The notes under the pieces are model-generated. The model made no database searches. It worked only from the letters and a program-made list of their open reading frames with translations, and was not told where the DNA came from. DNA of 64,000 nt, taken from Nitrososphaeria archaeon (GTDB lineage Archaea; Thermoproteota; Nitrososphaeria; Nitrososphaerales; JAAOZN01). Positions 10,317 through 32,318 of the stretch are shown here, in pieces; within the stretch, counting starts at the first letter, position 1; the number at the start of each line of letters is the position of its first letter. Location of the stretch: positions 4,901 through 68,900 of the forward strand of contig JARVJZ010000004.1 of assembly GCA_029775855.1 (NCBI GenBank), written 5' to 3'. Made by a program: the position numbers and the translations under genes.

Positions 10317-10337
10317 TGGACTCTACATCATTATCCT

Positions 10338-11744: not shown

Positions 11745-11800
11745 TCTGGCACCATTCAGTTTGCTGACTAAGAATTTATTTAAGTGTTAATTTCGGCGAT

Positions 11801-13120: not shown

Positions 13121-13125
13121 GAATC

Positions 13126-14670: not shown

Positions 14671-14689
14671 CTAGAATACCTCACAAATA

Positions 14690-16155: not shown

Positions 16156-17286
16156 GTGGGTTTTGTACGTTCGCTTTTAGCTCTGTTTCTCGCTTTGCTT
16201 GTGAGTGGGGTCTCTACTTCAGCGGTTTTAATTCTTCCTCCTCCTACGCCTCAAGACCCTTTGGCGCCTAAGATTCTTTCTTCTAAGGGGCAGAGTTTAG
16301 ATCCTGTTTTCAGCCCAGACGGTAAGTTCATAGCCTACTCCTCAAATCTTTACGGAGACTTCGACATATGGCTTATGACTGTTGATGGTAGGAATCAAGT
16401 TAGGTTAACTTGCTTAGAAGGAGATGAGAAGAAACCCCAGTTCAGCCCAGATGGAATGAAAATTGCCTTTATACATTCATCTAACTTCGGTGAAGACATT
16501 TGGGTAGTGAATAGAGATGGCTCAAACCCCGTTAAGATAACAAACAATCATACACCAAAAAACAAGTTTGAATGGTCGCCCAATGGGTACCTTATAATCT
16601 ACGACACAATTGTAAACGATAAATGGCAGGTTTGGCTAACTTCTTTGAACAAAGGTATCAATATTTTTGTTGGGGATTCTGAAGAAAGATACGCGCCTTC
16701 TTGGAGCCGCAACGGTAAGTTTGCTATATGTGTAAATAAAGGCGTCAAAGGGTATAGTTTGGAGTTAATAGATGTTTCGACTAATTCGGTTGAAAAAATT
16801 TACACAACATCTGCAGTTATAAAGTATCCAAGTTTCTTTAGTGCTGATGAAAAGATTCTCTTTTTAAGAGGAAACGGTGATTGGAGCGTATATACTTTCA
16901 ACATAGGTAATTCACGCATCACAAATCTATTTGCAGACCCACTAAGGTATTATGCGGGCATACCTTGGACACCCATTTTAGAATCGGAAGTACCTTACGC
17001 TACGAGAACTAAGGCTTCAGAGCTTCTTTTCGTCGGCTACTCTAAACAAGGCGCTGAATTGTTCATATTGTATGATGATATAGAGATAGACTTTAAGGAA
17101 AGAGGTGTAGGTGTTATAAAAGGTTCAATAATTGAGAGATTATTTACAATAGGGCATACAAGAATAAATAGCCTAAGTTGGAGCCAAGATGGTCATAGCA
17201 TCTTACTGTCGTTTACCGAAGGAGGTTATAATATATTATCCTTACTAGTTCTAGAAAAAAAGAAAGTTTCACCTTATGAAAAATAA
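16156..17286 (+). CDS. Secreted TolB-like beta-propeller protein (PD40/WD40-like repeats), paralog 1
   Basis: N-terminal signal or anchor (LLALFLALLVSGVSTSA). Repeated PD40-type motifs: FSPDGKFIAYSS..DIWLM, FSPDGMKIAFI..DIWVV, WSPNGYLIIY and PSWSRNGKFAI. Confidence 0.7.
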   Translation: MGFVRSLLALFLALLVSGVSTSAVLILPPPTPQDPLAPKILSSKGQSLDPVFSPDGKFIAYSSNLYGDFDIWLMTVDGRNQVRLTCLEGDEKKPQFSPDGMKIAFIHSSNFGEDIWVVNRDGSNPVKITNNHTPKNKFEWSPNGYLIIYDTIVNDKWQVWLTSLNKGINIFVGDSEERYAPSWSRNGKFAICVNKGVKGYSLELIDVSTNSVEKIYTTSAVIKYPSFFSADEKILFLRGNGDWSVYTFNIGNSRITNLFADPLRYYAGIPWTPILESEVPYATRTKASELLFVGYSKQGAELFILYDDIEIDFKERGVGVIKGSIIERLFTIGHTRINSLSWSQDGHSILLSFTEGGYNILSLLVLEKKKVSPYEK

Positions 17287-17305
17287 AAAATAGTGGGAAT
17301 AGAGC

Positions 17306-18064
17306 TTACCCATTGTCGTCTCTAGTTAATTCCATAAGTTCCTCTATATTCTTAGGCTTCAGAATCAGCTTATCCTTTAATCTAATTCCCATTGGTATTT
17401 CCTTTATATCATTTAGCGATTTGAAGATTGGTGGGAGAGGCTCTCTCGACCCTAAAAGTAGTAAGGCTTTATCCTCATCGTACGGGATTATCTTCTTCTT
17501 TTCACCCTTTGGTTTGAATACAACTGATGGGTTAGTTAAGCTTGGGTTTGGTAAGTCCTTTAGTTGTTTGACAGAACCATACTTTTTGACTAGATTCTCC
17601 ATTGTATCAAAGTCTAGAGCTCTCATCGGGCAAGCTAAGACGCATACAGGCTTAAGACCTTCTTCAAGTCTATCGATGCACATTGTACATTTATTAGCCT
17701 TAACGTCATTAGCTAACCTATCGCTCTCGTATGTTATGGCTCCATATGGGCAAGCTCGTTGGCAAAGTCTGTAACCTTTGCATTTTTCTTGATCTATCAG
17801 AACCGCGCCGTATTTCTCTTCTTTATATATTGCACCGTTAGGACACGCATCTATACAGACGGGATTACTACAATGGAAGCAGGTTACCCAGCGTATATGA
17901 GTTTTGATATTGGGATAATATCCCTCCTCATATTCGTAGATTCGAAGATATTTTATTGGCCCCGGTTTCAAGTCATACCAATCCTTACAAGCAACTACAC
18001 ACGCCTTGCAGTTAATGCATCTATCTTCGTTAAAGTAGAAGCCATATTGGACCATATCGCTCAC
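17306..18064 (-). CDS. Four-cluster ferredoxin subunit (DmsB/NarH-like) of molybdoenzyme 1
   Basis: Four Cys groups: CINCKACVVAC, CFHCSNPVCIDACP, CKGYRLCQRACP (C-x2-Y-x2-C-x3-CP, a NarH-like 3-Cys group) and CTMCIDRLEEGLKPVCVLACP. It has a C-terminal extension of about 100 aa ending in ELTRDDNG. It overlaps the catalytic gene by 4 nt. Confidence 0.85.
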   Translation of the reverse strand: MSDMVQYGFYFNEDRCINCKACVVACKDWYDLKPGPIKYLRIYEYEEGYYPNIKTHIRWVTCFHCSNPVCIDACPNGAIYKEEKYGAVLIDQEKCKGYRLCQRACPYGAITYESDRLANDVKANKCTMCIDRLEEGLKPVCVLACPMRALDFDTMENLVKKYGSVKQLKDLPNPSLTNPSVVFKPKGEKKKIIPYDEDKALLLLGSREPLPPIFKSLNDIKEIPMGIRLKDKLILKPKNIEELMELTRDDNG

Positions 18065-20736
18065 CTCAACTTTTGTACCTCAACAACACTTGTTACTGGG
18101 AATGAACCAGATGGGCTCATCGAATCATATGTCAACACATTACAAGCACCTCTGCTATCCATGCCAGCTGGGTTTGGTGTAAACCAAGCACCGTGCCAAA
18201 CTGCTACGACGCCAGGCATAATCTTTGCAGTCACATAAGCCGGCAGTATTATTTCACCGCAATCGTTGAATACTCTAACCAAATCACCATCCTTGATACC
18301 TCTAGCTTTTGCGTCAGAGACACTTATCCATACTGAGTGTCGATACGCCTCCTCATCTAGCATAGGGTTGGTATCGTATGCTGTGTGAGATCTGTAGCGG
18401 CTATGCGGTGTTATCATTGTTAATGGATACTTATTTGCCAATGGGCTGAACATCATGTGCTCTGGTGGAATATATTTTGGAATAGGTGGTACATATCCAC
18501 CGTATTTTGTTTTAGTGAGATCAGTTTTAGCCAAATACTCTGAATATATCTCGATCTTTTTAGATGAGGTATTTGCGAAAGGTTTTCCTTCTTTGACTTC
18601 AACGCCATATGAATAAAGTGGTTCTGGAAAATCAAAGTGGTAAACCACTTGCTTCTTGAAGTCTTCCCAGCTAGGTAGGGTTCGCCCAATATTTGCTAGA
18701 CTTTTTGCTCTTGCTTCCCACGCTGCTTTAAGAAGCCTATCTTTAGTTTCTTCCCATTTGGAGTCATCTGTGTAATTGGGGTTGAATTCTTTGAGGAAGC
18801 CCATCTTCTCCGCTAGCTTTGTAAATATCCAATCTGGTTCTTTTGCCTCTCCTTGAGGTTCAACACATTTAGGAGAGTAGACCCACCAGCAACCCGATAT
18901 ATTCCCCCAAGGTGAATCTATAGTTGTAGTTTCAAATGGTGTTTCGACTACTGGTAATATAACATCAGAATACAGTGCAGTAGGTGTCATATGTATTGCG
19001 AAGTTAACGACATAATCAACCTTCTCAAGCGCCTTTACACCCTTTAGAATGTTCATGTTTCTGTTCAGATATTGACCGATTGCGTTAAAGATCATCTTGA
19101 TATTAGGTAAGGGGTTAGTTGCAGGATTACCTATTATGCTATTGTACTGCTCGGCAGTCAACGATTTACCAACCTCGTCTCTAAGAAGTATGGTATCAGC
19201 CCACTTAAACTGCTTAAAAGCTATAATTGTCTTTTGTTTTCCACTTCCACCCCAGCTAGCGCTTGGTGGACTTGGGGCTCTATCGCTCTCAATAGCCCAA
19301 TTAGTGGTGTTAATGTATCCACCCGGTACACCGATGTTTCCAGTTAAAGCTTGAAGCGCTATTGCAGCTCGAGCAACGTTTTCACCGTATTGATTTCTTG
19401 CTGGAGCCCAGCTTTTGAAGAGGCAGACAGGCTTGCTTCTCGCATATAAACGTGCAAAGCTTCGTATGGTTTCAGCTGGCACACCGCAAATCTTTTCAGC
19501 CCACTCTGGAGTTTTTGGTACACCATCCTCAACTCCTGTGACGTAGTCCTTCCACTTCTTAACCCCTTCTGGTTCAACAAACTTTTCGACATATTCTTTA
19601 TCATATAAGTCTTCAGTAAAGAGCACATATGCAACCGCTAAAGCAAAAGCAATATCTGTACCTGGTCGTATTGGGATCCATTGGTCTGCTAGTATGTCTA
19701 TAGTGTTAGTGTATTTGGGATCTATCGCTATTATTGGAGTGCCTTTCTTTTCTTTGATAAGTTTCATAAGATATAAAGTGTTTGTGCCAAATATTGTGTT
19801 TGCAGGGTCGTGCCCCCATAGAACTATTAGATTTGAATTAATCATGTCTGTTGTCTGATGACCTTTACCATAAGTTATACCCAACATATGGTTCTCGCTA
19901 AAGATCTCTGCCTCAAAAGAGCAAACACCCCAGCTATCGACTGTGTCAACAATGTGACTAAAGAATCTTGAGGCTCCTCTCTGCCATATAGAATATGGCC
20001 CATATTTCTCTTTGACTTCCTTAATCATCTTTGCGACTAAATCTAATGCTTCATCCCAGCTAATTCTTACAAATTTTCCCTCTCCTCTCTTTGTGCCCTC
20101 CACTCTTTTCATTGGGTACTTTATCCGATCTGGATTGTATATCCAATATTTCAGTGCACGCCCCCTTACACAAGGACGCTTTTGGACGATCGCGTTTATT
20201 AGCTTGTGATAATCAAGCAACTCATCTTCAATCGCTACGTTTGAATGGAGTAAGTCGTCTCCTTCGATAGCTGTAATAACACCGTTCTTAATTCTTGCTT
20301 TAAGTAGACAACCTCTGCCACCGCAGTTAATTGTGCAACTACCATAGCTTATGGTTTCTTGTTGGTGTTTTGCTGCTAGTTGCTGTTTTATGGCTTCGAC
20401 TCTTTGTTTGATTTCTGGTGATAGGGGTGGTTTTAGGCTTGGTGGTGGGGGTGGTGTTTGAGTTACGGTTGTGGTTGCTGTTTGAGTTACTGTTGCTGTT
20501 TGTGTTACTGGTGTTGTGACTGTCGTTGTCTGTGTTACTGGTGTTGTTACCGTCGCTGTTTGTGTTGTGGTTCTGGTCTGTGTTACTGTTGCTGTGACTG
20601 TCTTTTCAACCTCTCTGATAGGTGTGAGAAGCCTATCAGCACCAACACCAACCGCAACACCAGCTACAGCAGAAGCAGCTAAAGCGCCAGCCCACTTCAA
20701 CATAGAACGGCGAGAAACCTTAACCTCCTCACCCAA
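18061..20736 (-). CDS. TAT-exported molybdopterin oxidoreductase catalytic subunit, DmsA-like, paralog 1
   Basis: Twin-arginine motif SRRSMLKW followed by an h-region. A Thr/Pro-rich insert of about 60 aa comes next. The FS0 motif is CTINCGGRGC...C. DMSO-reductase-family blocks are present (GEGKFVRISWDEALD, IDPKYT, WIPIRPGTD, TGNIGVPGG and the C-terminal GIKDGDLVRVFND). TTG start. Confidence 0.9.
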   Translation of the reverse strand: MGEEVKVSRRSMLKWAGALAASAVAGVAVGVGADRLLTPIREVEKTVTATVTQTRTTTQTATVTTPVTQTTTVTTPVTQTATVTQTATTTVTQTPPPPPSLKPPLSPEIKQRVEAIKQQLAAKHQQETISYGSCTINCGGRGCLLKARIKNGVITAIEGDDLLHSNVAIEDELLDYHKLINAIVQKRPCVRGRALKYWIYNPDRIKYPMKRVEGTKRGEGKFVRISWDEALDLVAKMIKEVKEKYGPYSIWQRGASRFFSHIVDTVDSWGVCSFEAEIFSENHMLGITYGKGHQTTDMINSNLIVLWGHDPANTIFGTNTLYLMKLIKEKKGTPIIAIDPKYTNTIDILADQWIPIRPGTDIAFALAVAYVLFTEDLYDKEYVEKFVEPEGVKKWKDYVTGVEDGVPKTPEWAEKICGVPAETIRSFARLYARSKPVCLFKSWAPARNQYGENVARAAIALQALTGNIGVPGGYINTTNWAIESDRAPSPPSASWGGSGKQKTIIAFKQFKWADTILLRDEVGKSLTAEQYNSIIGNPATNPLPNIKMIFNAIGQYLNRNMNILKGVKALEKVDYVVNFAIHMTPTALYSDVILPVVETPFETTTIDSPWGNISGCWWVYSPKCVEPQGEAKEPDWIFTKLAEKMGFLKEFNPNYTDDSKWEETKDRLLKAAWEARAKSLANIGRTLPSWEDFKKQVVYHFDFPEPLYSYGVEVKEGKPFANTSSKKIEIYSEYLAKTDLTKTKYGGYVPPIPKYIPPEHMMFSPLANKYPLTMITPHSRYRSHTAYDTNPMLDEEAYRHSVWISVSDAKARGIKDGDLVRVFNDCGEIILPAYVTAKIMPGVVAVWHGAWFTPNPAGMDSRGACNVLTYDSMSPSGSFPVTSVVEVQKLR

Positions 20737-20755
20737 ACAACATCAACTCTTGCTC
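20350..20755. repeat. Left arm of a perfect 406-bp inverted repeat (partner at 27719-28124)
   Basis: I compared the reverse complements block by block. The antisense ORFs in the two arms are also identical in the ORF track. Identity ends at 20349/28125 and at 20756/27718. Confidence 0.95.
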
Positions 20756-20771
20756 AGATACACACTATAAG

Positions 20772-20779
20772 TATTTAAA
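20772..20779 (-). promoter_or_regulatory. Candidate TATA box for molybdoenzyme-1 operon
   Basis: The minus strand reads TTTAAATA. It lies 16 nt outside the repeat arm and about 40 nt upstream of the TTG start. This is an archaeal TATA-like sequence read by eye only. Confidence 0.3.
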
Positions 20780-20937
20780 TCTTTCAAATATATGTATAAA
20801 AATTTTAGATAATATTTTTGAACTTAATCTTAAGTAGAAAGGAATATCTAAGTGTATAACGTTCGCTGTAAACTTGCATTACGCGCAATAGCCAAAACAA
20901 TTATCTAAAAGTGTGAGTAAAATATGGTGTATAAAGA

Positions 20938-22347
20938 TTGATAATAGTGTTGGTTAACCCACCTTTTACACTTAGTGAATGTTTCCGAGGTTTTGCAAGA
21001 GTTGGCAGTATACAGCAGCCGCTTGGTCTTGCTTATGTGGCGGCTGTATTGGAGGAGGCTGGGTATAATGTTAAGATTATCGATTCGCCGGTGTTAGGAC
21101 TGAGTTTACAAGAGACTGTCGAGACTGTCATTAGAATGAGACCAGATGTCGTCGGAATTACTGCCACCACTCCAACTTTCAATAGGGCTATTAGCTTAGC
21201 AGAAAGTCTAAAGAAGGTAGCTGATATACCACTAGTTATCGGTGGGCCGCATTCTACTACACTCCCTGATGAAACCCTAGCCCTTTCCTGCTTTGATATA
21301 GCGATCATAGGCGAAGGTGAATACACAATGCTTGAATTACTTAAATGCTTGCAAAAAGGTACATCTTTATACGAAGTTAAAGGGATAGCGTTTAAAGAAA
21401 GGGGACAGATAGTAAAGACTCCTCCTAGAGCATATATAGACGACCTAGATGCGCTTCCTTTTCCAGCGCGCCACCTCCTTCCACCTTTAAAGTATTATCA
21501 CCCTACTCCTTCTGCTTATCGCTCATTACCACAGGCTACAATGATTACAAGTAGAGGTTGCCCCTACCAATGCACCTTCTGCGACCGTTCAGTATTTGGA
21601 AACAAGTATAGAGCAAGAAGTCCCAAGAATGTAGTTGAAGAAGTTGAAGAACTCGTCTACGAATATAGGGCAAAAGAAGTGAGGTTTTGGGACGACACAT
21701 TTAACATCAACAGAAAAAGAGTTCTAGAGATTTGTAGAGAAATGCGGATGCGAAGACTAGACATAAGCTGGACATGCCTATGTAGGGCAAACTTAGTAGA
21801 TGAAGAAATGTTACGTGAAATGGCCAAGGCTGGGTGTTGGCAAGTAGAATATGGCATAGAATCCGGTAACGAGGAACTTCTTAAAAAGATCGGTAAGGGA
21901 ATTACTCTCCAACAAATTAAGGGCGCAGTAGAAAAAACTAAAGCCGCGGGTATGAAGGCCCGAGGTTTCTTTATGCTGGGCTTACCTGGTGAAACTGAGC
22001 AGACTCTCAGACAGACTATAATCTTCGCAAGGTCCTTAAAGCTGGATGCTGCTGTCTTCCACATTACGATCCCCTTTCCAGGAACAGACCTATATCTAAG
22101 CGCTGTCTCCAGTGGCGAACTACGCACTGACTTAAACTACCAATATTATTTGATGTTTGGCTCAGATGAAGTCCCATATATACCAAAAGGGTTAACTAAA
22201 GAAGTACTCTTGAAGTATCGGTCAATAGCATATAAGTCATTTTATCTAAGGCTAAGTTATATGCTAGAACAGTTAGCTTCTGCAAGATCTCTTAAAGATT
22301 TATTTCGATACCTACTTGGTTTTATAACCCTAGCGCGCATCGAGTGA
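20938..22347 (+). CDS. B12-binding-domain radical SAM protein (class B)
   Basis: The N-terminal part is a cobalamin-binding-like domain (LGLAYVAAVLEEAGYNVKIIDSP...VGITATTP). The radical SAM motif is SRGCPYQCTFCD. TTG start. Confidence 0.8.
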   Translation: MIIVLVNPPFTLSECFRGFARVGSIQQPLGLAYVAAVLEEAGYNVKIIDSPVLGLSLQETVETVIRMRPDVVGITATTPTFNRAISLAESLKKVADIPLVIGGPHSTTLPDETLALSCFDIAIIGEGEYTMLELLKCLQKGTSLYEVKGIAFKERGQIVKTPPRAYIDDLDALPFPARHLLPPLKYYHPTPSAYRSLPQATMITSRGCPYQCTFCDRSVFGNKYRARSPKNVVEEVEELVYEYRAKEVRFWDDTFNINRKRVLEICREMRMRRLDISWTCLCRANLVDEEMLREMAKAGCWQVEYGIESGNEELLKKIGKGITLQQIKGAVEKTKAAGMKARGFFMLGLPGETEQTLRQTIIFARSLKLDAAVFHITIPFPGTDLYLSAVSSGELRTDLNYQYYLMFGSDEVPYIPKGLTKEVLLKYRSIAYKSFYLRLSYMLEQLASARSLKDLFRYLLGFITLARIE

Positions 22348-22354
22348 GCCTAGT

Positions 22355-23044
22355 TTATTTGCTCAACTCATCTATTACAAAAGGTATAAATTCTTGTTCT
22401 ATTTTAATAAATCCATTTAACATTTTTGCAATACCTATGTAAAATTTGTTCGAAGACGCCTCTACAATCTTTCGACAAAGCTCTGGCACCCATTTACTTA
22501 GATGATCGCTTAAGAACTCCATTTGTAGTTTCAAGTATCCCTTTGAGTACTCAACGTTATTTGCGTCAAGGCTTCGCTTCGTCAAGTCTACCAGCTTTGC
22601 CATAAACTCTAGTTCCACAGCTAAATGGTCTTCAGGTTCTTTAAAATCAGGGGTTTTCTCAAAGCCTAATATTCTATATGCATCCAAGACCTCAAAATAT
22701 GGTTCTTCATATAACGTATGGTGCTTTCCAAGGTACACCGATTCAACTAAATAGACTGGTTTAGGGCCGACATTCAAGAAAAGTGATGCGTATTCTGAAG
22801 CAAGATCCGTAAGTAAGTTATTCCTTTCTGGAGTTTCTTTAAAGTTTTTAAAGAAATCGGATATGATTATGCAACCTTTCTTTAGTTCCTCATTATCTGC
22901 TGATTCAGACAATTGGATAAAAAGTTCTTCTAGTTCTTCTATAAGTTTGAGAAATGCTTCATCGACTTCCTTTGCAAAACTTCTTGATAAGAAGCTATAG
23001 AGAACGTACCTTGTCTGCATAACATCTTTATAATTATTTAACAA
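22355..23044 (-). CDS. TorD/DmsD-family redox-enzyme maturation chaperone
   Basis: The N-terminal RYVLYSFLSRSFAKEVDEAFL pattern and the acidic helical body (EDHLAVELEFMAKL) are typical of TorD-like chaperones. It is the last gene of the Psr-like operon. Confidence 0.65.
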   Translation of the reverse strand: MLNNYKDVMQTRYVLYSFLSRSFAKEVDEAFLKLIEELEELFIQLSESADNEELKKGCIIISDFFKNFKETPERNNLLTDLASEYASLFLNVGPKPVYLVESVYLGKHHTLYEEPYFEVLDAYRILGFEKTPDFKEPEDHLAVELEFMAKLVDLTKRSLDANNVEYSKGYLKLQMEFLSDHLSKWVPELCRKIVEASSNKFYIGIAKMLNGFIKIEQEFIPFVIDELSK

Positions 23045-23062
23045 CCTGATCTAACTTCCTTC

Positions 23063-24304
23063 TTATTGGTTAATATTCTTTTCCGTCCTCCATATAGGAA
23101 ATATCCAATATGCTATAGTAGTTATAAGAGCAATTATACCAAATAAAGCAGCGCCTATCGTTAATTCTATCCACGTAGGAAAGTACACACCATACACACC
23201 AAATGAAGATAAGCCGACACTGTATTCTCCTTTTGCTATGCCAGGTGGTAATAATATAGGCGGATATATATAGCCTGGGACTACAAGTTCAACTCTGTAG
23301 GATAATACGCCGGTAAGCACAAGTAAGGCTGCCAATCCAAGTATCTTCGGGTTCATTCTAAGTCTTGGATGTAATAGTAAGATGAATGGTAATATGGCCC
23401 CCGGGATCCACTCGTATACGAAGAATGGTAAGAAGGGGCCGGTAAATATTAGCGTTAGAGGTAGTGTCTCTGATGGTGCGGCAGACCATAACCTTATGAC
23501 GAATTCATTTCCTATAAGGAATAGATCTATTGGGATGATGACTGCAAGCAACTTACCGAGTGTATTAATTGTTTTAACCTCTACTCTTATTCGGCTGCGC
23601 CACTGCATGATTAGAACTGTCAATATGACTAATGAGAGCCCTGAGATCATAGCTGAGGCTAAGAAGATAGGGGCAATCAAAGCGCTGTACCACCAGCTTC
23701 TACTTATTTGTGTTCCGAATATCCACGCTGTTACTGTGTGTAGCATTACTGCTGTGGGCAGAGCTATAAACGAGATCACTTTGACTATTCTCTCGTCTTT
23801 AGCAACCGCTTTTGGCGAAACATCATTAAATCCGAAGGTGAGACGGCTGCCTTTCCTAGCTAACTCCGCACGCATCATAAACCAAAGATCAACTATACAC
23901 AAGACCAAATAGACAACTATTACAGTAAAGTCCCATATCAGCGGCGAAAGTGGATTGCCATATAATATAAGGTAGGCTATACGCTCAGGTCTACCCAAAT
24001 CTGGGATAATAGATAGAGCTGCAACAGCAACACAAGCAGCTGCCAGCGTGGTAGCCACTTTAGCTATCGGTTTAAACTCTTCTACTCCAAACACATGTGC
24101 AGAAGATGAGACGATAAGACCACCTGCGCTTATGCCTACGAAGAAGGCAAATAATGTGATGTAGATTCCCCAGCTTACAACATTTCTCATTCCAGTTACT
24201 ATCAACCCGTTTTGTAGCTGGATAATCCACGCACCCAAGCCTCCGCCGATGAGCAGAAGTAAAAATATTAACCAGCCGTAGAATAATGGCGAATGTTTAG
24301 CCAC
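23063..24304 (-). CDS. NrfD/PsrC-type integral membrane quinol-interacting subunit
   Basis: About 10 TM helices. The NrfD-like opening is VVSWGIYITLFAFFVGISAGGLIVSSS. It overlaps the FeS gene by 8 nt. Confidence 0.8.
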   Translation of the reverse strand: MAKHSPLFYGWLIFLLLLIGGGLGAWIIQLQNGLIVTGMRNVVSWGIYITLFAFFVGISAGGLIVSSSAHVFGVEEFKPIAKVATTLAAACVAVAALSIIPDLGRPERIAYLILYGNPLSPLIWDFTVIVVYLVLCIVDLWFMMRAELARKGSRLTFGFNDVSPKAVAKDERIVKVISFIALPTAVMLHTVTAWIFGTQISRSWWYSALIAPIFLASAMISGLSLVILTVLIMQWRSRIRVEVKTINTLGKLLAVIIPIDLFLIGNEFVIRLWSAAPSETLPLTLIFTGPFLPFFVYEWIPGAILPFILLLHPRLRMNPKILGLAALLVLTGVLSYRVELVVPGYIYPPILLPPGIAKGEYSVGLSSFGVYGVYFPTWIELTIGAALFGIIALITTIAYWIFPIWRTEKNINQ

Positions 24305-25106: not shown

Positions 25107-25109
25107 ATC

Positions 25110-27626
25110 CTATGCTTTTTGAACCTCAACTAATGTGTCAAAGAAGGAGCAGTTTAGAGTTATTGGATTCTTGTGTGCTGGTGTCAACTCATTATAGCTA
25201 CCTGCTGCGAACTGCCTTTTTTGCCATCCTTTATCCATGTTAATCAAGCCCGGTCTTAAACTTGGATTTAATTTGGCTCTCGCTCTTACCCAGCCTCTAT
25301 CGTTAAACACGTTAACGACATCGCCATTCTTAATTCCTCTGGCTTCAGCGTCCCTCGGGTTCATTTCGACAAATGGTTCTGGATCTAGTTCCCTTAACCA
25401 AGGAACTTCATACCACTGGGAGTGAACACGCCACTTCGAATGCTGCTGTATAAGCGTCAATGGATACTTCTTAGTTAAAGGGTTTTCGACCCAAGCTTCT
25501 TTAGGTGATTCAAAGTATGGAAGCGGATTAACACCCATAGTTACAGATATACCAAGAGCTGGATATGCCCAAGGATAGTTTAAAATCACCCTCTCAGAAT
25601 AAAACTCAAGACGCCCAGTTTGAGTAGGGTATTTACCGTCTTCATAGCCTATATAAGGCTCTTTAGAAAGTCTTACTACTCCCTCTTCTTTGAATCTTTT
25701 GATCTTTTCTTCACCGTATACTTCCTTTAACGCAGCAAGTATTCTTTCCCGATGGTCAGCTTCTGAACCTTGAAAGTATTGACCGAATCCCATCTTTTCA
25801 GCTAACATCTTAAAGATGTCCCAATCACTTTTGCATTCATACAACGGTTTGATCGCTCTTTCTTGGATCATTAGGTATGGGTGTAAACCACCCATTAAAT
25901 CGTCGTTCTCAAACCACGTTGTAGCTGGGAGAACAATATCAGCAAACATAGCTGTATCATTCATCTTCTGCTCTATCACTACGATAAATTCTAAGTTTTC
26001 TTCGGAAAACAGCTTTTCAATCCACTTTTGATTAGGGTAGCTGTTAACAAAGTTAGTACAAGATATTACTGCAGCTTTGATGGTGTATGGTGTTGGGATG
26101 GGGTCTTTGCTTATAGTTCCTTTTAAGGGGTCAGCCGGATCGCTAGGCACATACCTTTCAACATAACCATAAGCTATTGCGTCGTAAGCTAGGAGCGGAT
26201 TCAGGGTGTGAGCTTCTGTCCCAGATGGGGTAACCCACCTCCAAGACTCACTTAAAGCTGCTATTAGAGCTGAACCACCGTATGGTCCTCCAACCATCGC
26301 GCCAGGCCTACCTATGTTTCCAGTTAGTGCTGCTAGTGTAGCTAACGCTCTACCAGTAAGATAGCCATTATCCCATCTATCTACACCGAACCCTGCGAGA
26401 ATGCAGGCTGGTTTTCTTGTTGCATAGAGCCTTGCTACTTCTTGAACTTCGTTTGCAGGAACTTCGGTTAGCGCTTCAGCGTTTTCGGGTTTATATTTTG
26501 AGGCTTCTTCCCAAAGTAGCTGTAGAGCTGTTTTACAAAGTATACCATTAATTACGTATTTTCCAAAAAGAGCTGGAGGCATAGCTTTCTCGAAAACCGT
26601 TGGAGCGTCGGTGGCTTCATCATAGACTACATAATTGTTACTACCGTTTTCTTTGATGTCTTTTTCTCTTAAAAATAGACCATTATCTAATCTAACCAGA
26701 AATGGTGCGACTGTGCGCTCTAGAACAAACTTTCTATCATATAGCTCTTCATTCAATATGGTGTAGATCATTGAGAGGGCTAGCGCCGGATCTGAGCCTG
26801 GTCTTGGTTTTAGCCATATATCTGATTTGGCGGCTACAACACTCATTCTAGGATCGATGGAAACCATTTTTGCCCCGTTTTCCAGAGCATCTGCTACGAA
26901 ATGCCAGTTTTGAATCTGGCTTTCAGTGAAGTTAGACCCCCACATTATGATAAGCCTAGTATTATCTGCTATATCCACTGCTTCGTTAGCGCCAAAGAAA
27001 GCTGAGCTACCTCCTGGGATGTTTGCAATAACTTGGCTAAGTCCAAGTGGGAGGGCTGAGTCGACTCCTCCTTCTACTACCGTACCTTGAAATATATTGG
27101 CAAATAGCTTCATGGCGCCACAGAAGCTACCATTCACTAAACCATAATTCCCAGAGAGTGTAGCGAACATTACAGCACTTGAGCCATACTTCTCTTTGAC
27201 TTTTAAGAGTTTTTGTGCAATAGTGTTAATGGCTTCATCCCAGCTTATCCTTACCCACTTACCCTCACCCCTCTTCCCCACTCTTTTCAAAGGATACTTT
27301 AGTCTATTTGGATCATAAACACGTTGAACATGAGATAAACCTCTAAGGCATATCCGATCATACCTTCTATTGGGCATAGGTGCCATCTCAGTTTTAACAA
27401 GCTTATCCTCAAATACGTGGACATAAAGCCTGCAGCTCTGCCAGCAGTTAGGAGCGCAAGCGCTACGAAATACTTTAGTTGTCTTCTCCATCTTTTCGAT
27501 TGAAGCAGAAGCGCGAGATGGTATAAGCAAATTGCAACCAAGTGAGGATAAAGCTGCAATAGAAGTTGTTAAGGCAAGGCCTTTCAGGAAGGAACGACGC
27601 GATAGAACCATTGTAGGCTTATCCAC
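25110..27626 (-). CDS. TAT-exported molybdopterin oxidoreductase catalytic subunit (Psr/Ttr/Dms-like), substrate unknown
   Basis: Twin-arginine signal SRRSFLKGLALTT. FS0 motif CAPNCWQSC. Family blocks GEGKWVRISWDEAI, IDPRMS, TGNIGRPG and the C-terminal GIKNGDVVNVFND. Confidence 0.9.
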   Translation of the reverse strand: MDKPTMVLSRRSFLKGLALTTSIAALSSLGCNLLIPSRASASIEKMEKTTKVFRSACAPNCWQSCRLYVHVFEDKLVKTEMAPMPNRRYDRICLRGLSHVQRVYDPNRLKYPLKRVGKRGEGKWVRISWDEAINTIAQKLLKVKEKYGSSAVMFATLSGNYGLVNGSFCGAMKLFANIFQGTVVEGGVDSALPLGLSQVIANIPGGSSAFFGANEAVDIADNTRLIIMWGSNFTESQIQNWHFVADALENGAKMVSIDPRMSVVAAKSDIWLKPRPGSDPALALSMIYTILNEELYDRKFVLERTVAPFLVRLDNGLFLREKDIKENGSNNYVVYDEATDAPTVFEKAMPPALFGKYVINGILCKTALQLLWEEASKYKPENAEALTEVPANEVQEVARLYATRKPACILAGFGVDRWDNGYLTGRALATLAALTGNIGRPGAMVGGPYGGSALIAALSESWRWVTPSGTEAHTLNPLLAYDAIAYGYVERYVPSDPADPLKGTISKDPIPTPYTIKAAVISCTNFVNSYPNQKWIEKLFSEENLEFIVVIEQKMNDTAMFADIVLPATTWFENDDLMGGLHPYLMIQERAIKPLYECKSDWDIFKMLAEKMGFGQYFQGSEADHRERILAALKEVYGEEKIKRFKEEGVVRLSKEPYIGYEDGKYPTQTGRLEFYSERVILNYPWAYPALGISVTMGVNPLPYFESPKEAWVENPLTKKYPLTLIQQHSKWRVHSQWYEVPWLRELDPEPFVEMNPRDAEARGIKNGDVVNVFNDRGWVRARAKLNPSLRPGLINMDKGWQKRQFAAGSYNELTPAHKNPITLNCSFFDTLVEVQKA

Positions 27627-27691
27627 TACAAGCCTATCTTTTATATTTTTCCTTGGTTGTCGCTAAATTTTTTGTTTATTTTGTTTAAATA

Positions 27692-27700
27692 TTTATATAT
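27692..27700 (+). promoter_or_regulatory. Candidate TATA box for molybdoenzyme-2 operon
   Basis: TTTATATAT lies about 19-27 nt outside the repeat arm and about 40 nt upstream of the TTG start at 27738. Read by eye only. Confidence 0.3.
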
Positions 27701-27718
27701 TAGCTCTACTTTGATTTA

Positions 27719-28124
27719 GAGCAAGAGTTGATGTTGTTTGGGTGAGGAGGTTAAGGTTTCTCGCCGTTCTATGTTGAAGTGGGCTGGCGCTTTAGCTGCT
27801 TCTGCTGTAGCTGGTGTTGCGGTTGGTGTTGGTGCTGATAGGCTTCTCACACCTATCAGAGAGGTTGAAAAGACAGTCACAGCAACAGTAACACAGACCA
27901 GAACCACAACACAAACAGCGACGGTAACAACACCAGTAACACAGACAACGACAGTCACAACACCAGTAACACAAACAGCAACAGTAACTCAAACAGCAAC
28001 CACAACCGTAACTCAAACACCACCCCCACCACCAAGCCTAAAACCACCCCTATCACCAGAAATCAAACAAAGAGTCGAAGCCATAAAACAGCAACTAGCA
28101 GCAAAACACCAACAAGAAACCATA
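27719..28124. repeat. Right arm of the perfect 406-bp inverted repeat (partner at 20350-20755)
   Basis: Same evidence as the left arm. It covers 19 nt of 5' leader plus codons 1-129 of the gene. Confidence 0.95.
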
Positions 28125-30428
28125 GTGTACAGTGGGGGGTGTGGAATAAATTGTGGTGGTGGCGGAGGTTGGGATAGTGGGTGCTTCTTTAAAATAAGAC
28201 TTAGGGATGGTGTGATAACAGCTATAGAATCTGATGATACTATTAACACCAATCTGCCTAGGGAAGACGAAGTAAAAGATAACATTGATAAAGTGAGACT
28301 TCAACGCCGACCGTGTGTCCGTGGTAGAGCTTGGCGCAAATATATCTACGGACCAGACCGTATTCTATATCCATTGAAGAGAGTAGGTCAAAGAGGTGAG
28401 GGAAAGTTTGTTCGAATTAGTTGGAATGAGGCTCTAGATACTATTGCAGCTAAAATGAAAGAAATGAAAGAGAAATACGGTCCATACTCAATAGGCACTA
28501 TGTATGAGTACCAAGAGTTTCCTAACATTCTTGCATACTTTGGTTGCGGCGCTACAGGTTGGAGCACAGCGTCTTTTGAAGCTACTAACTTTGCTGGGCT
28601 ACAGATGATGGGTGCTTGGGCTTGGATACCTTACGTTGATCACGAAGCACCAGACATTTTTAACACTAAACTCATAATCATGTGGGGGTGGGACCCAACT
28701 ACATCAGAATGGATGATCTTCACAAAATACTATCTTCTACTAGCAAAAGAAAAGGGTATACCAATTATCGTAATCGAACCTAGATATACGTCATCGGCAG
28801 AAGTTTATGCAGACCAGTGGATACCAATTAGACCCGGCACTGATGTAGCAATGATGTTAGCGATGGCAAACGTTATATTCAAGGAAAAGCTTTACGATCA
28901 AGATTATATCTCGAAATATGTGGATACGAATGGTCTTCAAAAATGGATGGACTATGTCTTAGGTAAGTCTGATGGAGTCGATAAGACGCCTGAGTGGGCA
29001 GAGAAGATATGCGGTGTTCCTGCTGAAACTATACGCGACTTAGCTCGACTATACGCTAAGAGCAAACCTTGCCATCTTAATGTAAGCTGGGCGCAAGCCA
29101 GACAGCCTTGGGGTGAGAATGTCGCTAGAGCAGCAATAGCTTTACACGCCATAACGGGAAACATAGGTGTGCCAGGTGGTGCTTCTTGCTTAGGTGGTGG
29201 ATTTGTGGCAAGAGGTGTTTATGATAGCCCAGTTGTCGATTATAGGCAAAAACCTGTTCCCGTAACAGAAATGTGGGGTGGGACATTACCAGTGCTATAT
29301 TGCAACTGGAAGTGGGCTGATGTAGTTCTGCTAAAAGAGAAGGTTGATAAGGGTGAGATGACTAAAGAAGATTACTACAGCATCATCGGTAACGATGCAA
29401 ATAACCCTATGCCCAATCTACATATGTTATGGATAAATAAGAACATATTTAATCAGACAGTTGATCTTAACAAACAAATCAAGGCTATTATGAAGATGGA
29501 CTTTGTAGTTGCTTGCGGGAGGCATATGACGCCATCAAACAAATATGCTGATATAATATTGCCCCTAACAGATGTCATGTTTGAAGAAAGACACTTTTTC
29601 GGCAACATGTATGCACCAAAGATCATTAACCCCCCAGGAGAAGCAAAAGATTTGTTGTGGATTCAAACTCAACTCGCCAAAAGACTGGGTCTTCTCGACT
29701 TGTATATGCCACTCTACACTACAGATGCTGAATGGGATAACTTGCTGGAAAGGCTCCATAAAGAAGCCTATGAAAAATGGGCGGCTCAACGAGGAATAAA
29801 TGTTTCTTGGGAGGAGTTTAAGAAGAAGCCAATAATACGCAGAGATGTCGTAGGAGAATTGAATTATCCCTTTAAAGCGCAGATTCAGAAAGGTGAGAAA
29901 TTTAACACAAGTACTGGCAAGATCGAAATATATTCTGAATATTTGGCTAAGACTGATCTAAAGAAGACAAGATACGGAGGATATATAGATCCTATGCCAG
30001 TCTACAGACCGCTTTGGGAAGGCTTTTACGATCCAAAAGCAAAAAAGTATCCACTTATGGTTATCACACCCCACGGAAGGTACAGAATCCACTCTGTTCA
30101 AGACTCTAATCCTTGGTTATCTGAAGATGCATATAGGAACTCAGTTTGGATAAGTGTGGTCGACGCTAAAGCAAGAGGCATTAAAGACGGTGACTTAGTC
30201 AGAGTTTACAACGACGTGGGAGAAATGGTGATTCCAGCTTATGTGACTTCGAGGATAGTACCTGGTGTAGTCTGTGTGTATGAGGGTAGATGGTATAGTC
30301 CAAACCCCAAAGGAGTCGATCGTAGAGGATGCAGTGATATAATATGTTATAATGAGAGTGCTGTACAACGATATCCCGGCGCTGGAGCTTGGCCGTTTAC
30401 AGCGCTTGTGGAGGTTGAAAAGTTCTAA
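27738..30428 (+). CDS. TAT-exported molybdopterin oxidoreductase catalytic subunit, DmsA-like, paralog 2
   Basis: The first 129 aa are identical to paralog 1. The FS0 motif carries a Gly-rich insertion (CGINCGGGGGWDSGC). Family blocks are present (GEGKFVRISWNEALD, IEPRYT, WIPIRPGTD, TGNIGVPGG, GIKDGDLVRVYND). By eye it is roughly half identical to paralog 1 after residue 129. Confidence 0.9.
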   Translation: MGEEVKVSRRSMLKWAGALAASAVAGVAVGVGADRLLTPIREVEKTVTATVTQTRTTTQTATVTTPVTQTTTVTTPVTQTATVTQTATTTVTQTPPPPPSLKPPLSPEIKQRVEAIKQQLAAKHQQETIVYSGGCGINCGGGGGWDSGCFFKIRLRDGVITAIESDDTINTNLPREDEVKDNIDKVRLQRRPCVRGRAWRKYIYGPDRILYPLKRVGQRGEGKFVRISWNEALDTIAAKMKEMKEKYGPYSIGTMYEYQEFPNILAYFGCGATGWSTASFEATNFAGLQMMGAWAWIPYVDHEAPDIFNTKLIIMWGWDPTTSEWMIFTKYYLLLAKEKGIPIIVIEPRYTSSAEVYADQWIPIRPGTDVAMMLAMANVIFKEKLYDQDYISKYVDTNGLQKWMDYVLGKSDGVDKTPEWAEKICGVPAETIRDLARLYAKSKPCHLNVSWAQARQPWGENVARAAIALHAITGNIGVPGGASCLGGGFVARGVYDSPVVDYRQKPVPVTEMWGGTLPVLYCNWKWADVVLLKEKVDKGEMTKEDYYSIIGNDANNPMPNLHMLWINKNIFNQTVDLNKQIKAIMKMDFVVACGRHMTPSNKYADIILPLTDVMFEERHFFGNMYAPKIINPPGEAKDLLWIQTQLAKRLGLLDLYMPLYTTDAEWDNLLERLHKEAYEKWAAQRGINVSWEEFKKKPIIRRDVVGELNYPFKAQIQKGEKFNTSTGKIEIYSEYLAKTDLKKTRYGGYIDPMPVYRPLWEGFYDPKAKKYPLMVITPHGRYRIHSVQDSNPWLSEDAYRNSVWISVVDAKARGIKDGDLVRVYNDVGEMVIPAYVTSRIVPGVVCVYEGRWYSPNPKGVDRRGCSDIICYNESAVQRYPGAGAWPFTALVEVEKF

Positions 30429-30436
30429 GAGGTGGT

Positions 30437-31183
30437 ATGATGGTTCAATATGGATTTTTCTTTGACCAAAGCAGATGCATAGGTTGCAGAGCTTGCGCTG
30501 TAGCTTGCAAGGACTGGAACGATCTGCCTGAAGGACCGGTTAAGTGGCTTCGGATATATGAATATGAAAAGGGTGCTTTCCCAAATGTGAGGGTTCACTA
30601 CCACTTCATTCCTTGTTTCCATTGCGAAAACCCCATATGTATAGACGCATCTAGTGCTCGCGGTATTTATAAGGAAGAAAAGTATGGTGCTGTGTTAATA
30701 GACCCTGATAAGGCTACTAAACTGAGGGATGCAGCCGCTGCTTGCCTATACGGTTCGATAGTCTTTGAAAGTGATGCCTCTGATGCAAAAGCCTCAAAAT
30801 GCACAATGTGCATAGATCGATTAGAAGAGGGGCTACTACCAGTTTGCGTAGCAGCGTGCCCAACTAGAGCTTTGGATTTTGGACCTCTTGAAACATTGCA
30901 AAGAAAGTATGGTACAAACAGGGATCTAGAGGATCTACCACCGTCTACTCTAACAAAGCCTTCCGCAATCTTTAAGCCACACTCTCCGAAGAAGCAGCTA
31001 GTCAGCTACGATGTAAATAAGGCCCTAAAGCTGCTTGCTGAAAGAGGCGATCTACCAAGTATATATAGTACAGCTGAGGATGTATTAAATATACCAGAAG
31101 GGCTGTTAAAGCGCAATAAGTTAGTTCTTAAGCCAAATAGCGTAAAGGACCTTCAAGAACTAACAAGGGACGATAACGCCTAA
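30437..31183 (+). CDS. DmsB-like ferredoxin subunit of molybdoenzyme 2, with one cluster-binding site lost
   Basis: Group I (CIGCRACAVAC) and group IV (CTMCIDRLEEGLLPVCVAACP) are intact. Group II is CFHCENPICIDASS, so its last Cys is Ser. Group III is ATKLRDAAAACL, so only its last Cys is kept. The C-terminal extension ends in ELTRDDNA. Confidence 0.85.
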   Translation: MMVQYGFFFDQSRCIGCRACAVACKDWNDLPEGPVKWLRIYEYEKGAFPNVRVHYHFIPCFHCENPICIDASSARGIYKEEKYGAVLIDPDKATKLRDAAAACLYGSIVFESDASDAKASKCTMCIDRLEEGLLPVCVAACPTRALDFGPLETLQRKYGTNRDLEDLPPSTLTKPSAIFKPHSPKKQLVSYDVNKALKLLAERGDLPSIYSTAEDVLNIPEGLLKRNKLVLKPNSVKDLQELTRDDNA

Positions 31184-31199
31184 GAATCTCTACAGTTTC

Positions 31200-32318
31200 A
31201 TGACTCTCCTCTCATATTTTTTTAGAATTTTATGGATTTTCCTTTCACTTTCAATTTCTTCAGCAGCAGTATGGTCAGTTTTTTACCTACCAAATCCACA
31301 ATTACCTAGCAACAACAATGTTCTTCAACTTGTTAATAGCGGGGGAATGCCGGCAATAGACTCTCTTGGCGATACTGTCTCCTACATTTCATTAAATGAT
31401 GGATATAGTGAGATATGGTTGATTCGCAGCGATGGAAGAGAAAATAGACTTTTAACACCTATAAAAGGTAATATATCTAAAATTAAGTGGAGTCCAAATG
31501 GATTAGTAATAGCGTTTATTGCTAATCAAGGCTCTGATAAGATCTTCAGGATTTCGAAATATGGTGGAGTTATTACGCCAGTGAGCCGCGCGTTTGATGC
31601 TATCGAACAATTTGTATGGCTAGACGATGAATGGATTTTGCACGACGGCTACGAAAATGGTAAGTGGGGCGTATATCTCTCTAAAACAGACCGCGTGTAC
31701 GTTAGACTTAGCTCTTTCGATATCGACGCAAAGCATCCTAACTTATTAAAAGAAGGATCTCTTGTTGCAATGAGCGCAAAATATAGCGAGGGATACAAAA
31801 TAATCCTTTACAATCTCACATCAGGAAGTTGGACTCCTATAACTTTTGGAAGTGGTGATGATCTTAAACCCGCATTCAGCCCAGACGGCAAGAAGATAGC
31901 ATACCTATCTAATCGAGCAGGCAGGTGGAGCATTTGGCTAAAGAACATTGACACCGATAGTGAAATAGATCTTACGGCACCTTTTTCAGAGAGACGATAC
32001 CCCAGTTGGGCTCCTGATGTAGACCTCAATACAACTTTGATCTGGAAACCAGATTCACAACATCTAATATTCGACGGAAAACGTGGAAATTCCCGCGAGA
32101 TTTATATAATTAACTTAAGTGGTGGAACGGTAACTTTACGTTTCGCCGTTAAAGAATATTTTCCTCTGATACTCAACGTGGTATTTGAAAGCGTTTCGTC
32201 CTACAATCCAGTAATAGATCCAAGAGGTGAAAGTATATACTTTGAGAATAGAGGAGAAGGAGCCAGCAGTGTTTGGCGATTAGATCTTAACGTAAAACGA
32301 GCCTTATCTTATGGTTGA
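31200..32318 (+). CDS. Secreted TolB-like beta-propeller protein, paralog 2
   Basis: N-terminal hydrophobic signal or anchor. PD40-type motifs WSPNGLVIAFI, FSPDGKKIAYLSNRAGRWSIWL, PSWAPD and WKPDSQHLIF. It starts 16 nt after the FeS gene on the same strand. Confidence 0.65.
   Translation: MTLLSYFFRILWIFLSLSISSAAVWSVFYLPNPQLPSNNNVLQLVNSGGMPAIDSLGDTVSYISLNDGYSEIWLIRSDGRENRLLTPIKGNISKIKWSPNGLVIAFIANQGSDKIFRISKYGGVITPVSRAFDAIEQFVWLDDEWILHDGYENGKWGVYLSKTDRVYVRLSSFDIDAKHPNLLKEGSLVAMSAKYSEGYKIILYNLTSGSWTPITFGSGDDLKPAFSPDGKKIAYLSNRAGRWSIWLKNIDTDSEIDLTAPFSERRYPSWAPDVDLNTTLIWKPDSQHLIFDGKRGNSREIYIINLSGGTVTLRFAVKEYFPLILNVVFESVSSYNPVIDPRGESIYFENRGEGASSVWRLDLNVKRALSYG

Follow-up and report, generated by a model that had tools for sequence, protein, structure and literature searches.

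PD40 beta-propeller genes recur beside DmsA/DmsB-like gene pairs with predicted export anchors in a Nitrososphaeria archaeon and related lineages

In a 64,000-nucleotide (nt) stretch of contig JARVJZ010000004.1 from a Nitrososphaeria archaeon (assembly GCA_029775855.1, positions 4,901 to 68,900, hereafter the window), two gene pairs, each coding for a DmsA-like molybdopterin subunit (alpha) and a DmsB-like iron-sulfur (FeS) subunit (beta), are directly adjoined by genes for beta-propeller proteins of about 375 amino acids (aa) with PD40-type repeats. Comparison with related loci gave good support to the conclusion that this triad is real and recurrent. One of the two propeller genes also has as its neighbour memb466, the gene of an orphan protein with 12 predicted transmembrane (TM) helices, and this arrangement recurs as well. 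We tentatively propose that the propeller is a membrane-anchored adaptor or dock between exported, tethered alpha-beta heads and memb466, a reading to which we give somewhat less than an even chance. The window was mapped by calling open reading frames (ORFs) and searching Pfam, and all six triad genes lay at the positions given by an earlier reading made from the letters alone (the sequence-only reading). These genes and the elements discussed with them are as follows.

16156-17286, + strand: prop1, PD40 seven-bladed propeller of 376 aa, with TM helix, LPxP motif, propeller domain and C-terminal P-Y tail
17306-18064, - strand: beta1, DmsB-like FeS subunit with 15 cluster cysteines and C-terminal ELTRDDNG
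18061-20736, - strand: alpha1, DmsA/YnfE-like molybdopterin subunit with twin-arginine translocation (Tat) signal, Thr/Pro-rich stalk of ~100 aa, and catalytic domain with FS0 motif and Ser molybdenum (Mo) ligand
27738-30428, + strand: alpha2, paralogue of alpha1, its first 129 aa identical to those of alpha1
30437-31183, + strand: beta2, DmsB-like, 12 Cys, FS4 ligands gone
31200-32318, + strand: prop2, second PD40 propeller, 372 aa, in an operon with alpha2-beta2
14690-16090, - strand: memb466, orphan 12-TM protein, divergently oriented from prop1
20350-20755, no strand: inverted repeat arm A, anchor and stalk module of alpha1 plus 19 nt upstream
27719-28124, no strand: inverted repeat arm B, anchor and stalk module of alpha2 plus 19 nt upstream

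As already described from the letters, prop1 and beta1 at locus 1 are convergent, with a gap of 19 nt, and prop2 at locus 2 starts 16 nt past the end of beta2 on the same strand. No third propeller paralogue was found in the window by tblastn. No gene of DmsC/NrfD type belongs to either alpha-beta pair, the sole NrfD gene sitting in a separate alpha3-beta3 operon. The earlier label "membrane-subunit-less" is incomplete, since it overlooked the adjacent 12-TM memb466, the gene most tightly linked to the propeller.

Conservation of the propeller neighbourhood

Close homologues of the window propellers were few, and all five with readable flanks (L001, L004, L005, L006 and L007) adjoin a beta-alpha pair. 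L001 is the orthologue of locus 2, with the gene order alpha, beta, propeller, rhodanese and radical S-adenosylmethionine (SAM) gene, and shares with it 90% identity in alpha, 86% in beta and 47% in the propeller; over orthologous loci as a whole, propellers are 42-47% identical, compared to 80-90% for alpha and beta. The propeller converges on beta-alpha in L004, L005 and L006, and on chaperone-beta-alpha in L007, where a TorD-like gene lies between propeller and beta. Scanning an alpha alignment over one genome per species yielded 80 loci, mostly from Chloroflexota, Desulfobacterota and Eggerthellaceae, and a hidden Markov model (HMM) of the propeller matched only two of them, L014 and L050, both of which are alpha-beta-propeller operons from the same Nitrososphaerales metagenome-assembled genome (MAG). 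Co-directional operons of this type, with gaps of 14-16 nt, were thus present in window locus 2, L001, L014 and L050, and a propeller near an alpha was also seen in L171 and L172.

A narrower propeller alignment run against metagenomes retrieved only generic PD40 proteins from soil and water, which did not extend the family and were used as a negative control. No alpha or beta homologue occurred around these proteins in any of 80 loci (628 kb), and none of 240 listed PD40 homologues contained a Molybdopterin or Fer4_11 domain. The functional link between propeller and alpha-beta that the sequence-only reading had argued for is therefore backed by a neighbourhood conserved in L001, L004-L007, L014, L050, L171 and L172 and found at 0 of 80 control loci.

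Export signals of the alpha subunits

In the full set of alpha relatives, 12 have the motif SRRS[MVL]LKW with a Thr/Pro/Ser-rich linker of 51-121 aa after it, and 12 of 12 came from propeller lineages (two in the window, two in L014, three in L050, and one each in L005, L007, L071, L171 and L172). Their catalytic domains span DmsA-like, BisC/TorA-like and type II-like types. About 75 bacterial and other archaeal alpha relatives have no RR motif, and FS0 lies ~25-40 residues from their start; these relatives are therefore probably cytoplasmic. The co-occurrence strongly supports the view that the propeller is found exactly where alpha-beta heads have, as far as their sequences tell, been moved outside on a stalk. 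The distribution shows an alpha-beta clade, predicted to be mostly cytoplasmic, from which heads appear to have been moved outside the cell by means of one transferable anchor and stalk module, whose anchor would be the uncleaved Tat signal.

Many of the RR-less relatives have a polytopic membrane ORF after alpha-beta. These ORFs were considered as hidden memb466 homologues or anchors, and this was ruled out: eight of nine checked were GntP, MFS or branched-chain amino-acid transport permeases, the ninth had no Pfam match, and the memb466 HMM matched none.

Mosaic propellers and cassette exchange

L007 matches the window at 98.9% over a stretch that runs from the 5′ part of memb466 through the intergenic region to codon 73 of prop1. 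Its alpha anchor module matches at 97%, and between these matching ends lie another propeller domain, a chaperone, a beta and another alpha catalytic domain. The same pattern was observed in L004, with the break after about codon 141 of the propeller. Residues 1-73 of prop1 are nearly identical in both loci, and in both the alpha anchor module, at 97-99% identity, is joined to other catalytic domains. Matching ends around a differing middle indicate that the exchanged unit consists of the C-terminal part of the propeller, beta and the alpha catalytic domain. On either side this unit is flanked by the conserved 5′ end of an outer gene, these two genes being convergent. A single MAG (locus tags QW158) holds prop1-type, prop2-type and L004-type propellers.

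The propeller alignment of nine triads was cut into residues 1-75, 76-220 and 221-376, and each part was compared with alpha. Residues 1-75 track lineage, with 93-96% identity within a lineage and r=0.12 against alpha identity (p=0.29), residues 76-220 are intermediate, and residues 221-376 track alpha type (r=0.74, Mantel p=0.0005), identities in matched pairs being 38, 54, 52 and 29% compared to 13-33% in all other pairs. Over whole proteins, the congruence of propeller and alpha was r=0.53, compared to r=0.90 for alpha and beta. Congruent propeller and alpha histories, which the sequence-only reading had offered as a check on the link, were accordingly found for the C-terminal 155 residues, which follow alpha type, and not for the N-terminal part, which follows lineage. 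Such a mosaic fits an adaptor with one constant and one cassette-specific face.

Relationship between the two window loci

prop1 and prop2 are 25% identical and collinear over 308 aa (E 4e-21), beta1 and beta2 are 57% identical, and alpha1 and alpha2 are 55% identical overall and ~48% outside their identical N-terminus of 129 aa. The first 129 codons of both alphas and the 19 nt upstream of them form a perfect inverted repeat of 406 nt (100% identical). With 25% identity between propellers against ~48-57% between alphas and betas, and with a shared alpha N-terminus, the two loci are not the product of a simple recent triplicate duplication, and a single joint duplication of all three genes, from which the sequence-only reading had drawn its argument, is not supported as stated; the whole-protein congruence of propeller and alpha, only moderate (r=0.53), does not support it either. 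Judged by sequence, the N-terminal modules of the two alphas have undergone homogenisation, and divergence between the propellers goes far beyond that of their neighbours.

The inverted repeat brackets a 7-kb segment with the genes for a B12-binding radical SAM protein, TorD, NrfD, beta3 and alpha3, and recombination between its arms would invert this segment, swapping both alpha promoters. The right flank of L007 runs into the alpha2-side intergenic region, which fits either the inverted arrangement or a different locus layout.

The propeller protein

Both window propellers matched PD40 (PF07676; E 1e-12 and 5e-13). The AlphaFold2 (AF2) model of prop1 (pLDDT 89) shows a helix at the N-terminus (residues 2-25) and, after it, a propeller of seven blades, and its nearest folds according to Foldseek are the propellers of TolB (E 1e-13) and of S9 peptidases (TM-score 0.60-0.67). 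The TolB N-terminal domain PF04052 had no match in either propeller, only a TM helix preceding the propeller in the model; scores against TIGR02800 were 92 and 89 bits compared to a cut-off of 343, and no Tol-Pal genes (tolQRA, pal) were present in the window region or in related loci. Conserved positions in the family alignment are concentrated in generic PD40 motifs, the LPxP motif and a C-terminal Tyr. There is good support for a propeller protein that is anchored, faces outward and has no catalytic role.

All propellers of the family have an LPxP/LPPP motif right after the TM helix, and the members of alignment A3 share a short C-terminal tail in which a Tyr is invariant (..SPYEK, ..LSYG, ..NPYG, ..PSYG; residues 370-376 in prop1). 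A Tyr near the C-terminus is also found in most L175 propellers and in both of the memb466 fusions described below. The tail has low confidence in the AF2 model and resembles a short interaction motif. L050 also encodes a different surface propeller (13889-15136, - strand), convergent on the second of three tandem alpha-beta pairs, with YVTN/NHL-type repeats, a signal peptide, a Ser/Thr-rich stalk and a C-terminal TM anchor.

The membrane protein memb466

The probable true start of memb466 is an internal Met at 15985, which would give a protein of ~431 aa. Searches of Pfam, NCBIfam and PDB returned no sequence match. Its family is small: a word-indexed search returned 17 clusters, and 178 representatives came from an exhaustive profile search. 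The members have ~12 TM helices and the invariant residues H52, H192xH194, H254 and H339xH341 (alignment A5). memb466 adjoins a PD40 propeller in nine loci (the window, L004, L005, L006, L007, L010, L171, L172 and L175). The proteins of L171 and L172 are at 43% identity, and both loci carry a Tat-and-stalk molybdoenzyme and a TorD-like gene, L171 also a beta. In P0272 (777 aa) and P0274 (858 aa), memb466 is fused to a C-terminal PD40 propeller that keeps its own TM helix and LPPP motif. The retention of this helix in the fusions indicates that it is a real anchor, not a cleaved signal, and that both proteins work together. A functional tie between propeller and memb466 is thus well supported. 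In another family member, P0286, the fusion partner is an FGE-sulfatase domain instead of a propeller. The L175 locus contains two memb466 genes and five propellers (fusion included) together with ArsR, a low-molecular-weight (LMW)-phosphatase-type ArsC and a MIP channel.

The AF2 model of memb466 (pLDDT 85, pTM 0.89) has 12 long helices, and its top 34 PDB fold matches by Foldseek were all heme-copper oxidase subunit I or NorB (TM-score 0.5-0.66); a heme-copper-oxidase-like fold is therefore predicted from the model. The histidines are laid out as H52 in TM2, HxH in TM6, H254, and HxH in TM10, and the HH pair of the oxidases is H-N here. Pfam COX1 did not match any of 16 family members at E up to 10, and an hhalign comparison with CyoB by itself yielded no match; when nine subunit I sequences were used, the alignment was collinear and placed four invariant His on H284, H333, H419 and H421 of CyoB. 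With no sequence match and a non-significant profile score, the oxidase-like reading draws only on predicted structure and histidine pattern. memb466 may bind cofactors, and electrons may pass through it.

Alpha and beta subunits

Both alphas matched PF00384 (E 1e-40 and 1e-41), PF01568 and TAT_signal in Pfam, and both betas matched Fer4_11. alpha1 and alpha2 scored 507 and 481 bits against TIGR02166, under its cut-off of 777.7, and are thus DmsA-like relatives rather than members of the curated subfamily; the betas scored 154 and 145 bits against TIGR02951 (cut-off 214). The best solved relative of the alphas is the DMSO reductase of R. sphaeroides (DorA, E 8e-78). Ser273 of alpha1 (GVCSFEAE) aligns with the Mo-ligand Ser147 of DorA (1eu1), and this Ser is kept in alpha2 (ASFEA) and in the L004 alpha (ASNES). 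The FS0 motif reads C-x3-C-x4-C...RPC in alpha1 and C-x3-C-x9-C...RPC in alpha2, and Pfam Molybdop_Fe4S4 matched neither. The alphas of L007 and L014 are BisC/TorA-like, and that of L172 is type II/Psr-like. Those of L004 (2373-4856, - strand) and L007 (3358-5970, - strand) have no FS0 cysteine motif, one Cys being left in L004, and are still paired with betas that have no FS4. Catechol dehydroxylases were considered as a candidate alpha family, given the Eggerthellaceae relatives in the genome scan; the window alphas are closest to DmsA/DorA and not to acetylene hydratase.

beta1 has 15 of 16 cluster cysteines, the second Cys of group III being replaced by Tyr, and since three are left in that group (C-x5-C-x3-C), its FS4 is probably a 3Fe-4S cluster. 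beta2 has 12, and those missing are exactly the four FS4 ligands, group III reading A..A..C and the last Cys of group II being S or A. In 77 betas of the clade, 16 cluster cysteines were counted in 44, 15 in 22 (beta1 included) and 12 in 10, and all ten 12-Cys betas come from propeller lineages (beta2, L001/L002, L004, L006, L014a, L050a-c and L071). The short betas of L007 and L014 are likewise without FS4 ligands. In canonical enzymes (DmsABC, NarGHI, PsrABC), FS4 is positioned towards the membrane subunit, and its apparent loss here supports the view that these pairs have no canonical anchor.

The C-terminal tail of beta (..TRNDEG-like; ELTRDDNG in beta1) is common to the whole beta clade, including ~60 propeller-less bacterial and archaeal loci, and is therefore not specific to propellers; the short betas of L007 and L014, which are linked to propellers, do not have it. 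We thus ruled out this tail as a propeller-binding element, a role that the sequence-only reading had proposed to check.

Neighbouring genes

Other features around the triads are as follows.

22355-23044, - strand: TorD/NarJ-type chaperone (Pfam); a homologue lies between propeller and beta in L007 and near the clusters in L171 and L172
32393-33256, + strand: two-domain rhodanese with N-terminal hydrophobic signal, directly 3′ of prop2; same position in L001 (4433-5317)
20938-22347, + strand: B12-binding radical SAM gene; recurs near the clusters in L014, L171 and L172
33261-34586, flanking the locus 2 side: Tes/TrsS-like radical SAM gene; homologues near the clusters in L001 and L014
22355-27626, - strand: complete Psr-like operon of alpha3, beta3, NrfD and TorD-like chaperone, between the two anchor-less pairs; alpha3-beta3-NrfD part from 23063
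8843-14670, just upstream of memb466: glycosylation-type cluster

Both radical SAM genes (20938-22347 and 33261-34586) score below NCBIfam cut-offs. An operon resembling the Psr-like alpha3-beta3-NrfD-TorD operon is also found near memb466 in L172. The rhodanese gene 3′ of prop2, in the window as in L001, hints at a sulfur or selenium substrate for alpha2-beta2. The glycosylation-type cluster consists of a methyltransferase, a CMD-family gene, a DUF2064-GT2 gene, a GT87/MptA-like GT-C glycosyltransferase and a membrane GT2; it is syntenic in L005 (1710-7491) and partly in L014 (19151-21536), and might glycosylate the Thr-rich stalks of the alphas. We considered memb466 as a member of this cluster and ruled it out, the memb466-propeller pair occurring in L171, L172 and L175 with no glycosyltransferases nearby.

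Proposed role of the propeller and alternatives

The adaptor reading builds on gene linkage, the propeller mosaic, memb466-propeller fusions, export signals and predicted folds as observed above. In this scheme, alpha-beta heads would fold in the cytoplasm with the help of a TorD-type chaperone, be exported in the folded state by the Tat pathway, and be held at the cell surface by the N-terminal signal anchor of alpha and its Thr/Pro-rich, probably glycosylated stalk. The propeller, non-catalytic and facing outward, would be held in the membrane by its N-terminal helix; its constant N-terminal part (helix and first blades) would associate with memb466, and its variable C-terminal blades would be matched to, and would touch, a particular alpha-beta head, so that propeller and memb466 would jointly replace the missing DmsC/NrfD-type anchor. 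Catalytic cassettes, each made up of the C-terminal half of the propeller, beta and the alpha catalytic domain, would be traded through recombination between the 5′ regions of the outer genes, which are conserved and code for the anchors. A more ambitious version of the adaptor reading, which we regard as doubtful, is that of an undescribed membrane module in thermophilic Nitrososphaeria-related archaea, in which an extremely divergent memb466 of oxidase-like fold, with the PD40 propeller as its outward "subunit II" and docking platform, would couple Tat-exported, stalk-tethered heads to the membrane, heads and matching propeller halves being exchangeable as cassettes.

Several observations weigh against the adaptor reading. 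No memb466 was seen within reach of the prop2-type loci (window locus 2, L001, L014 and L050), and no molybdoenzyme was seen in L175 within 10 kb upstream or ~2 kb downstream (contig end) of the fusion gene. In L008/L009 the propeller has neither partner within 5 kb. These loci also bear on the scattered paralogues that the sequence-only reading had named as evidence against a link: the link holds at close homologues, but for the family members of L008/L009 and L175 no molybdoenzyme is visible nearby. Only a few lineages, related to one another, are involved, so that locus counts are not independent events. The loss of FS4 argues, as far as sequence can tell, against a standard electron path from beta to the membrane, even in loci with an adjacent memb466 (L004, L006 and L007), and no conserved Cys or His motif for a redox cofactor was found in the propeller family alignment. 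Sequence comparison does not confirm the predicted oxidase-like fold of memb466, the profile-profile score of 27.0 having been equalled by one of 20 block-shuffled controls. Lastly, the co-variation of the C-terminal propeller part with alpha could be a by-product of physical adjacency and of crossovers that need homology.

Some of the same observations would be expected if memb466 and the propeller formed a self-contained membrane machine, e.g. a divergent heme-copper-oxidase-like enzyme with the propeller as subunit II, the molybdoenzymes merely sharing a co-regulated respiratory or stress island. The fusions join the propeller to memb466 and not to alpha or beta; Molybdopterin and Fer4_11 domains are absent from the 240 listed PD40 homologues; in L175 the memb466/PD40 pairs lie amid genes for arsenic resistance, and no molybdoenzyme is visible there; neither alpha nor beta was seen within 5 kb of the memb466 of L176; and the loss of FS4 from most of the associated betas argues against a transfer of electrons to a membrane partner. 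Such a machine would not account for the four alpha-beta-propeller operons with no nearby memb466 (window locus 2, L001, L014 and L050), for C-terminal blades that track alpha type across two lineages, or for the restriction of propellers to places where alpha has the Tat signal and stalk module, and we consider it unlikely.

Those four tightly coupled operons are instead what one would expect if the propeller served alpha-beta alone, independently of memb466, either as a lid over the catalytic funnel that captures substrate or acts as a gate, or as a factor for the assembly or retention of Tat-exported heads outside the cytoplasm. Gating propellers of S9 peptidases are among the closest folds (TM-score 0.60-0.67), the propeller evolves faster than alpha and beta, as expected of a surface or ligand-facing part, and an exported rhodanese, a known sulfur-carrier type, follows prop2. 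However, conserved pocket residues were not identified in the propeller, and the recurrent adjacency and fusions of memb466 would be left unexplained, which makes this alternative rather improbable.

Finally, an ordinary envelope propeller kept beside alpha-beta by inherited synteny in a narrow archaeal group, with no functional link, would suit the commonness of PD40 proteins, the origin of all positive loci in a few related Nitrososphaerales/Nitrososphaerota-labelled lineages or unassigned metagenome contigs, and the synteny of the glycosyltransferase cluster near prop1 in L005 and partly in L014, but we disfavour it as very improbable, since the association outlasts changes of gene order, orientation and catalytic subfamily (DmsA-like, BisC/TorA-like, type II-like), spans G+C contents from 41% to 53% and includes co-directional operons with 14-16 nt gaps, and 80 generic PD40 loci have no such neighbours.

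Comparison with known systems

Complex iron-sulfur molybdoenzymes are a textbook modular family, in which a catalytic and an FeS subunit are combined with a membrane anchor from a small known set, and the system described here is a complex iron-sulfur molybdoenzyme with new accessory parts. It resembles E. coli DmsABC/YnfEFGH in its Molybdopterin and Molydop_binding domains, its DmsA-like FS0 motif (C-x3-C-x4-C...C), the Mo-ligand Ser, the Tat signal of alpha, the DmsB-like beta and a nearby TorD/DmsD-type chaperone gene. It differs in that the window operons have no DmsC/NrfD gene and do not reach the NCBIfam cut-offs (507 vs 777.7 and 154 vs 214 bits), that alpha has a stalk of ~100 aa after the signal and beta an extension of ~90 aa ending in ..TRDDN, that beta2 has no FS4, and that a PD40 propeller gene is attached. 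The pyrogallol-phloroglucinol transhydroxylase of Pelobacter likewise consists of alpha-beta with no membrane partner gene, has a C-terminal extension of beta and was matched in PDB (4v4c; alpha E 3e-50, beta E 2e-15). Three clusters are present in the beta of this enzyme, the number also expected for beta2. However, it is cytoplasmic and has no propeller, and the window alphas are nearer to DmsA and DorA (E 8e-78). In Shewanella DmsEFAB, the DmsAB head lies outside the cytoplasmic membrane, and its partners are a decaheme cytochrome and an outer-membrane barrel, not DmsC. The archaeal system shares with it an exported DmsAB head with non-canonical partners in place of DmsC, although no homologue of the decaheme cytochrome or the outer-membrane barrel is present here.

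The propellers share PD40-type repeats with TolB of Tol-Pal, and their best PDB fold matches are the C-terminal propellers of TolB. The TolB propeller has six blades, whereas the prop1 model has seven and TolB chains align with it over only ~220 columns; the window propellers also differ in having no PF04052, an N-terminal TM helix, an archaeal host and no Tol-Pal context. memb466 resembles heme-copper oxidase subunit I/NorB in its 12 predicted TM helices and its six invariant His, including the TM2 His and the TM10 HxH, and the propeller resembles subunit II in having one TM helix and an outward beta-rich domain. In contrast to the oxidases, the third metal site of memb466 would be HxH (TM6) plus H instead of H plus HH, there is no sequence match (Pfam COX1, NCBIfam, PDB) and no profile score above shuffles, and the propeller partner has no CuA or heme c motif.

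A full-text literature search returned no report of a PD40/TolB-like partner of a DMSO-reductase-family enzyme, as the sequence-only reading had surmised, nor of an oxidase-like protein paired with a propeller; the paper seemingly behind these hot-spring MAGs handled molybdopterin oxidoreductases phylogenetically only. If the adaptor reading is true, the propeller subunit, possibly with an oxidase-like membrane partner, would represent a new mode of membrane attachment in this family, and would give a first functional context both to the orphan 12-TM family (~178 representative clusters) and to an archaeal "TolB-like" subfamily now annotated as hypothetical. The cassette structure suggests how hot-spring archaea may diversify the substrate range of surface respiratory enzymes within populations, and how exported redox enzymes are retained and supplied in archaea with no periplasm would become a directly testable question.

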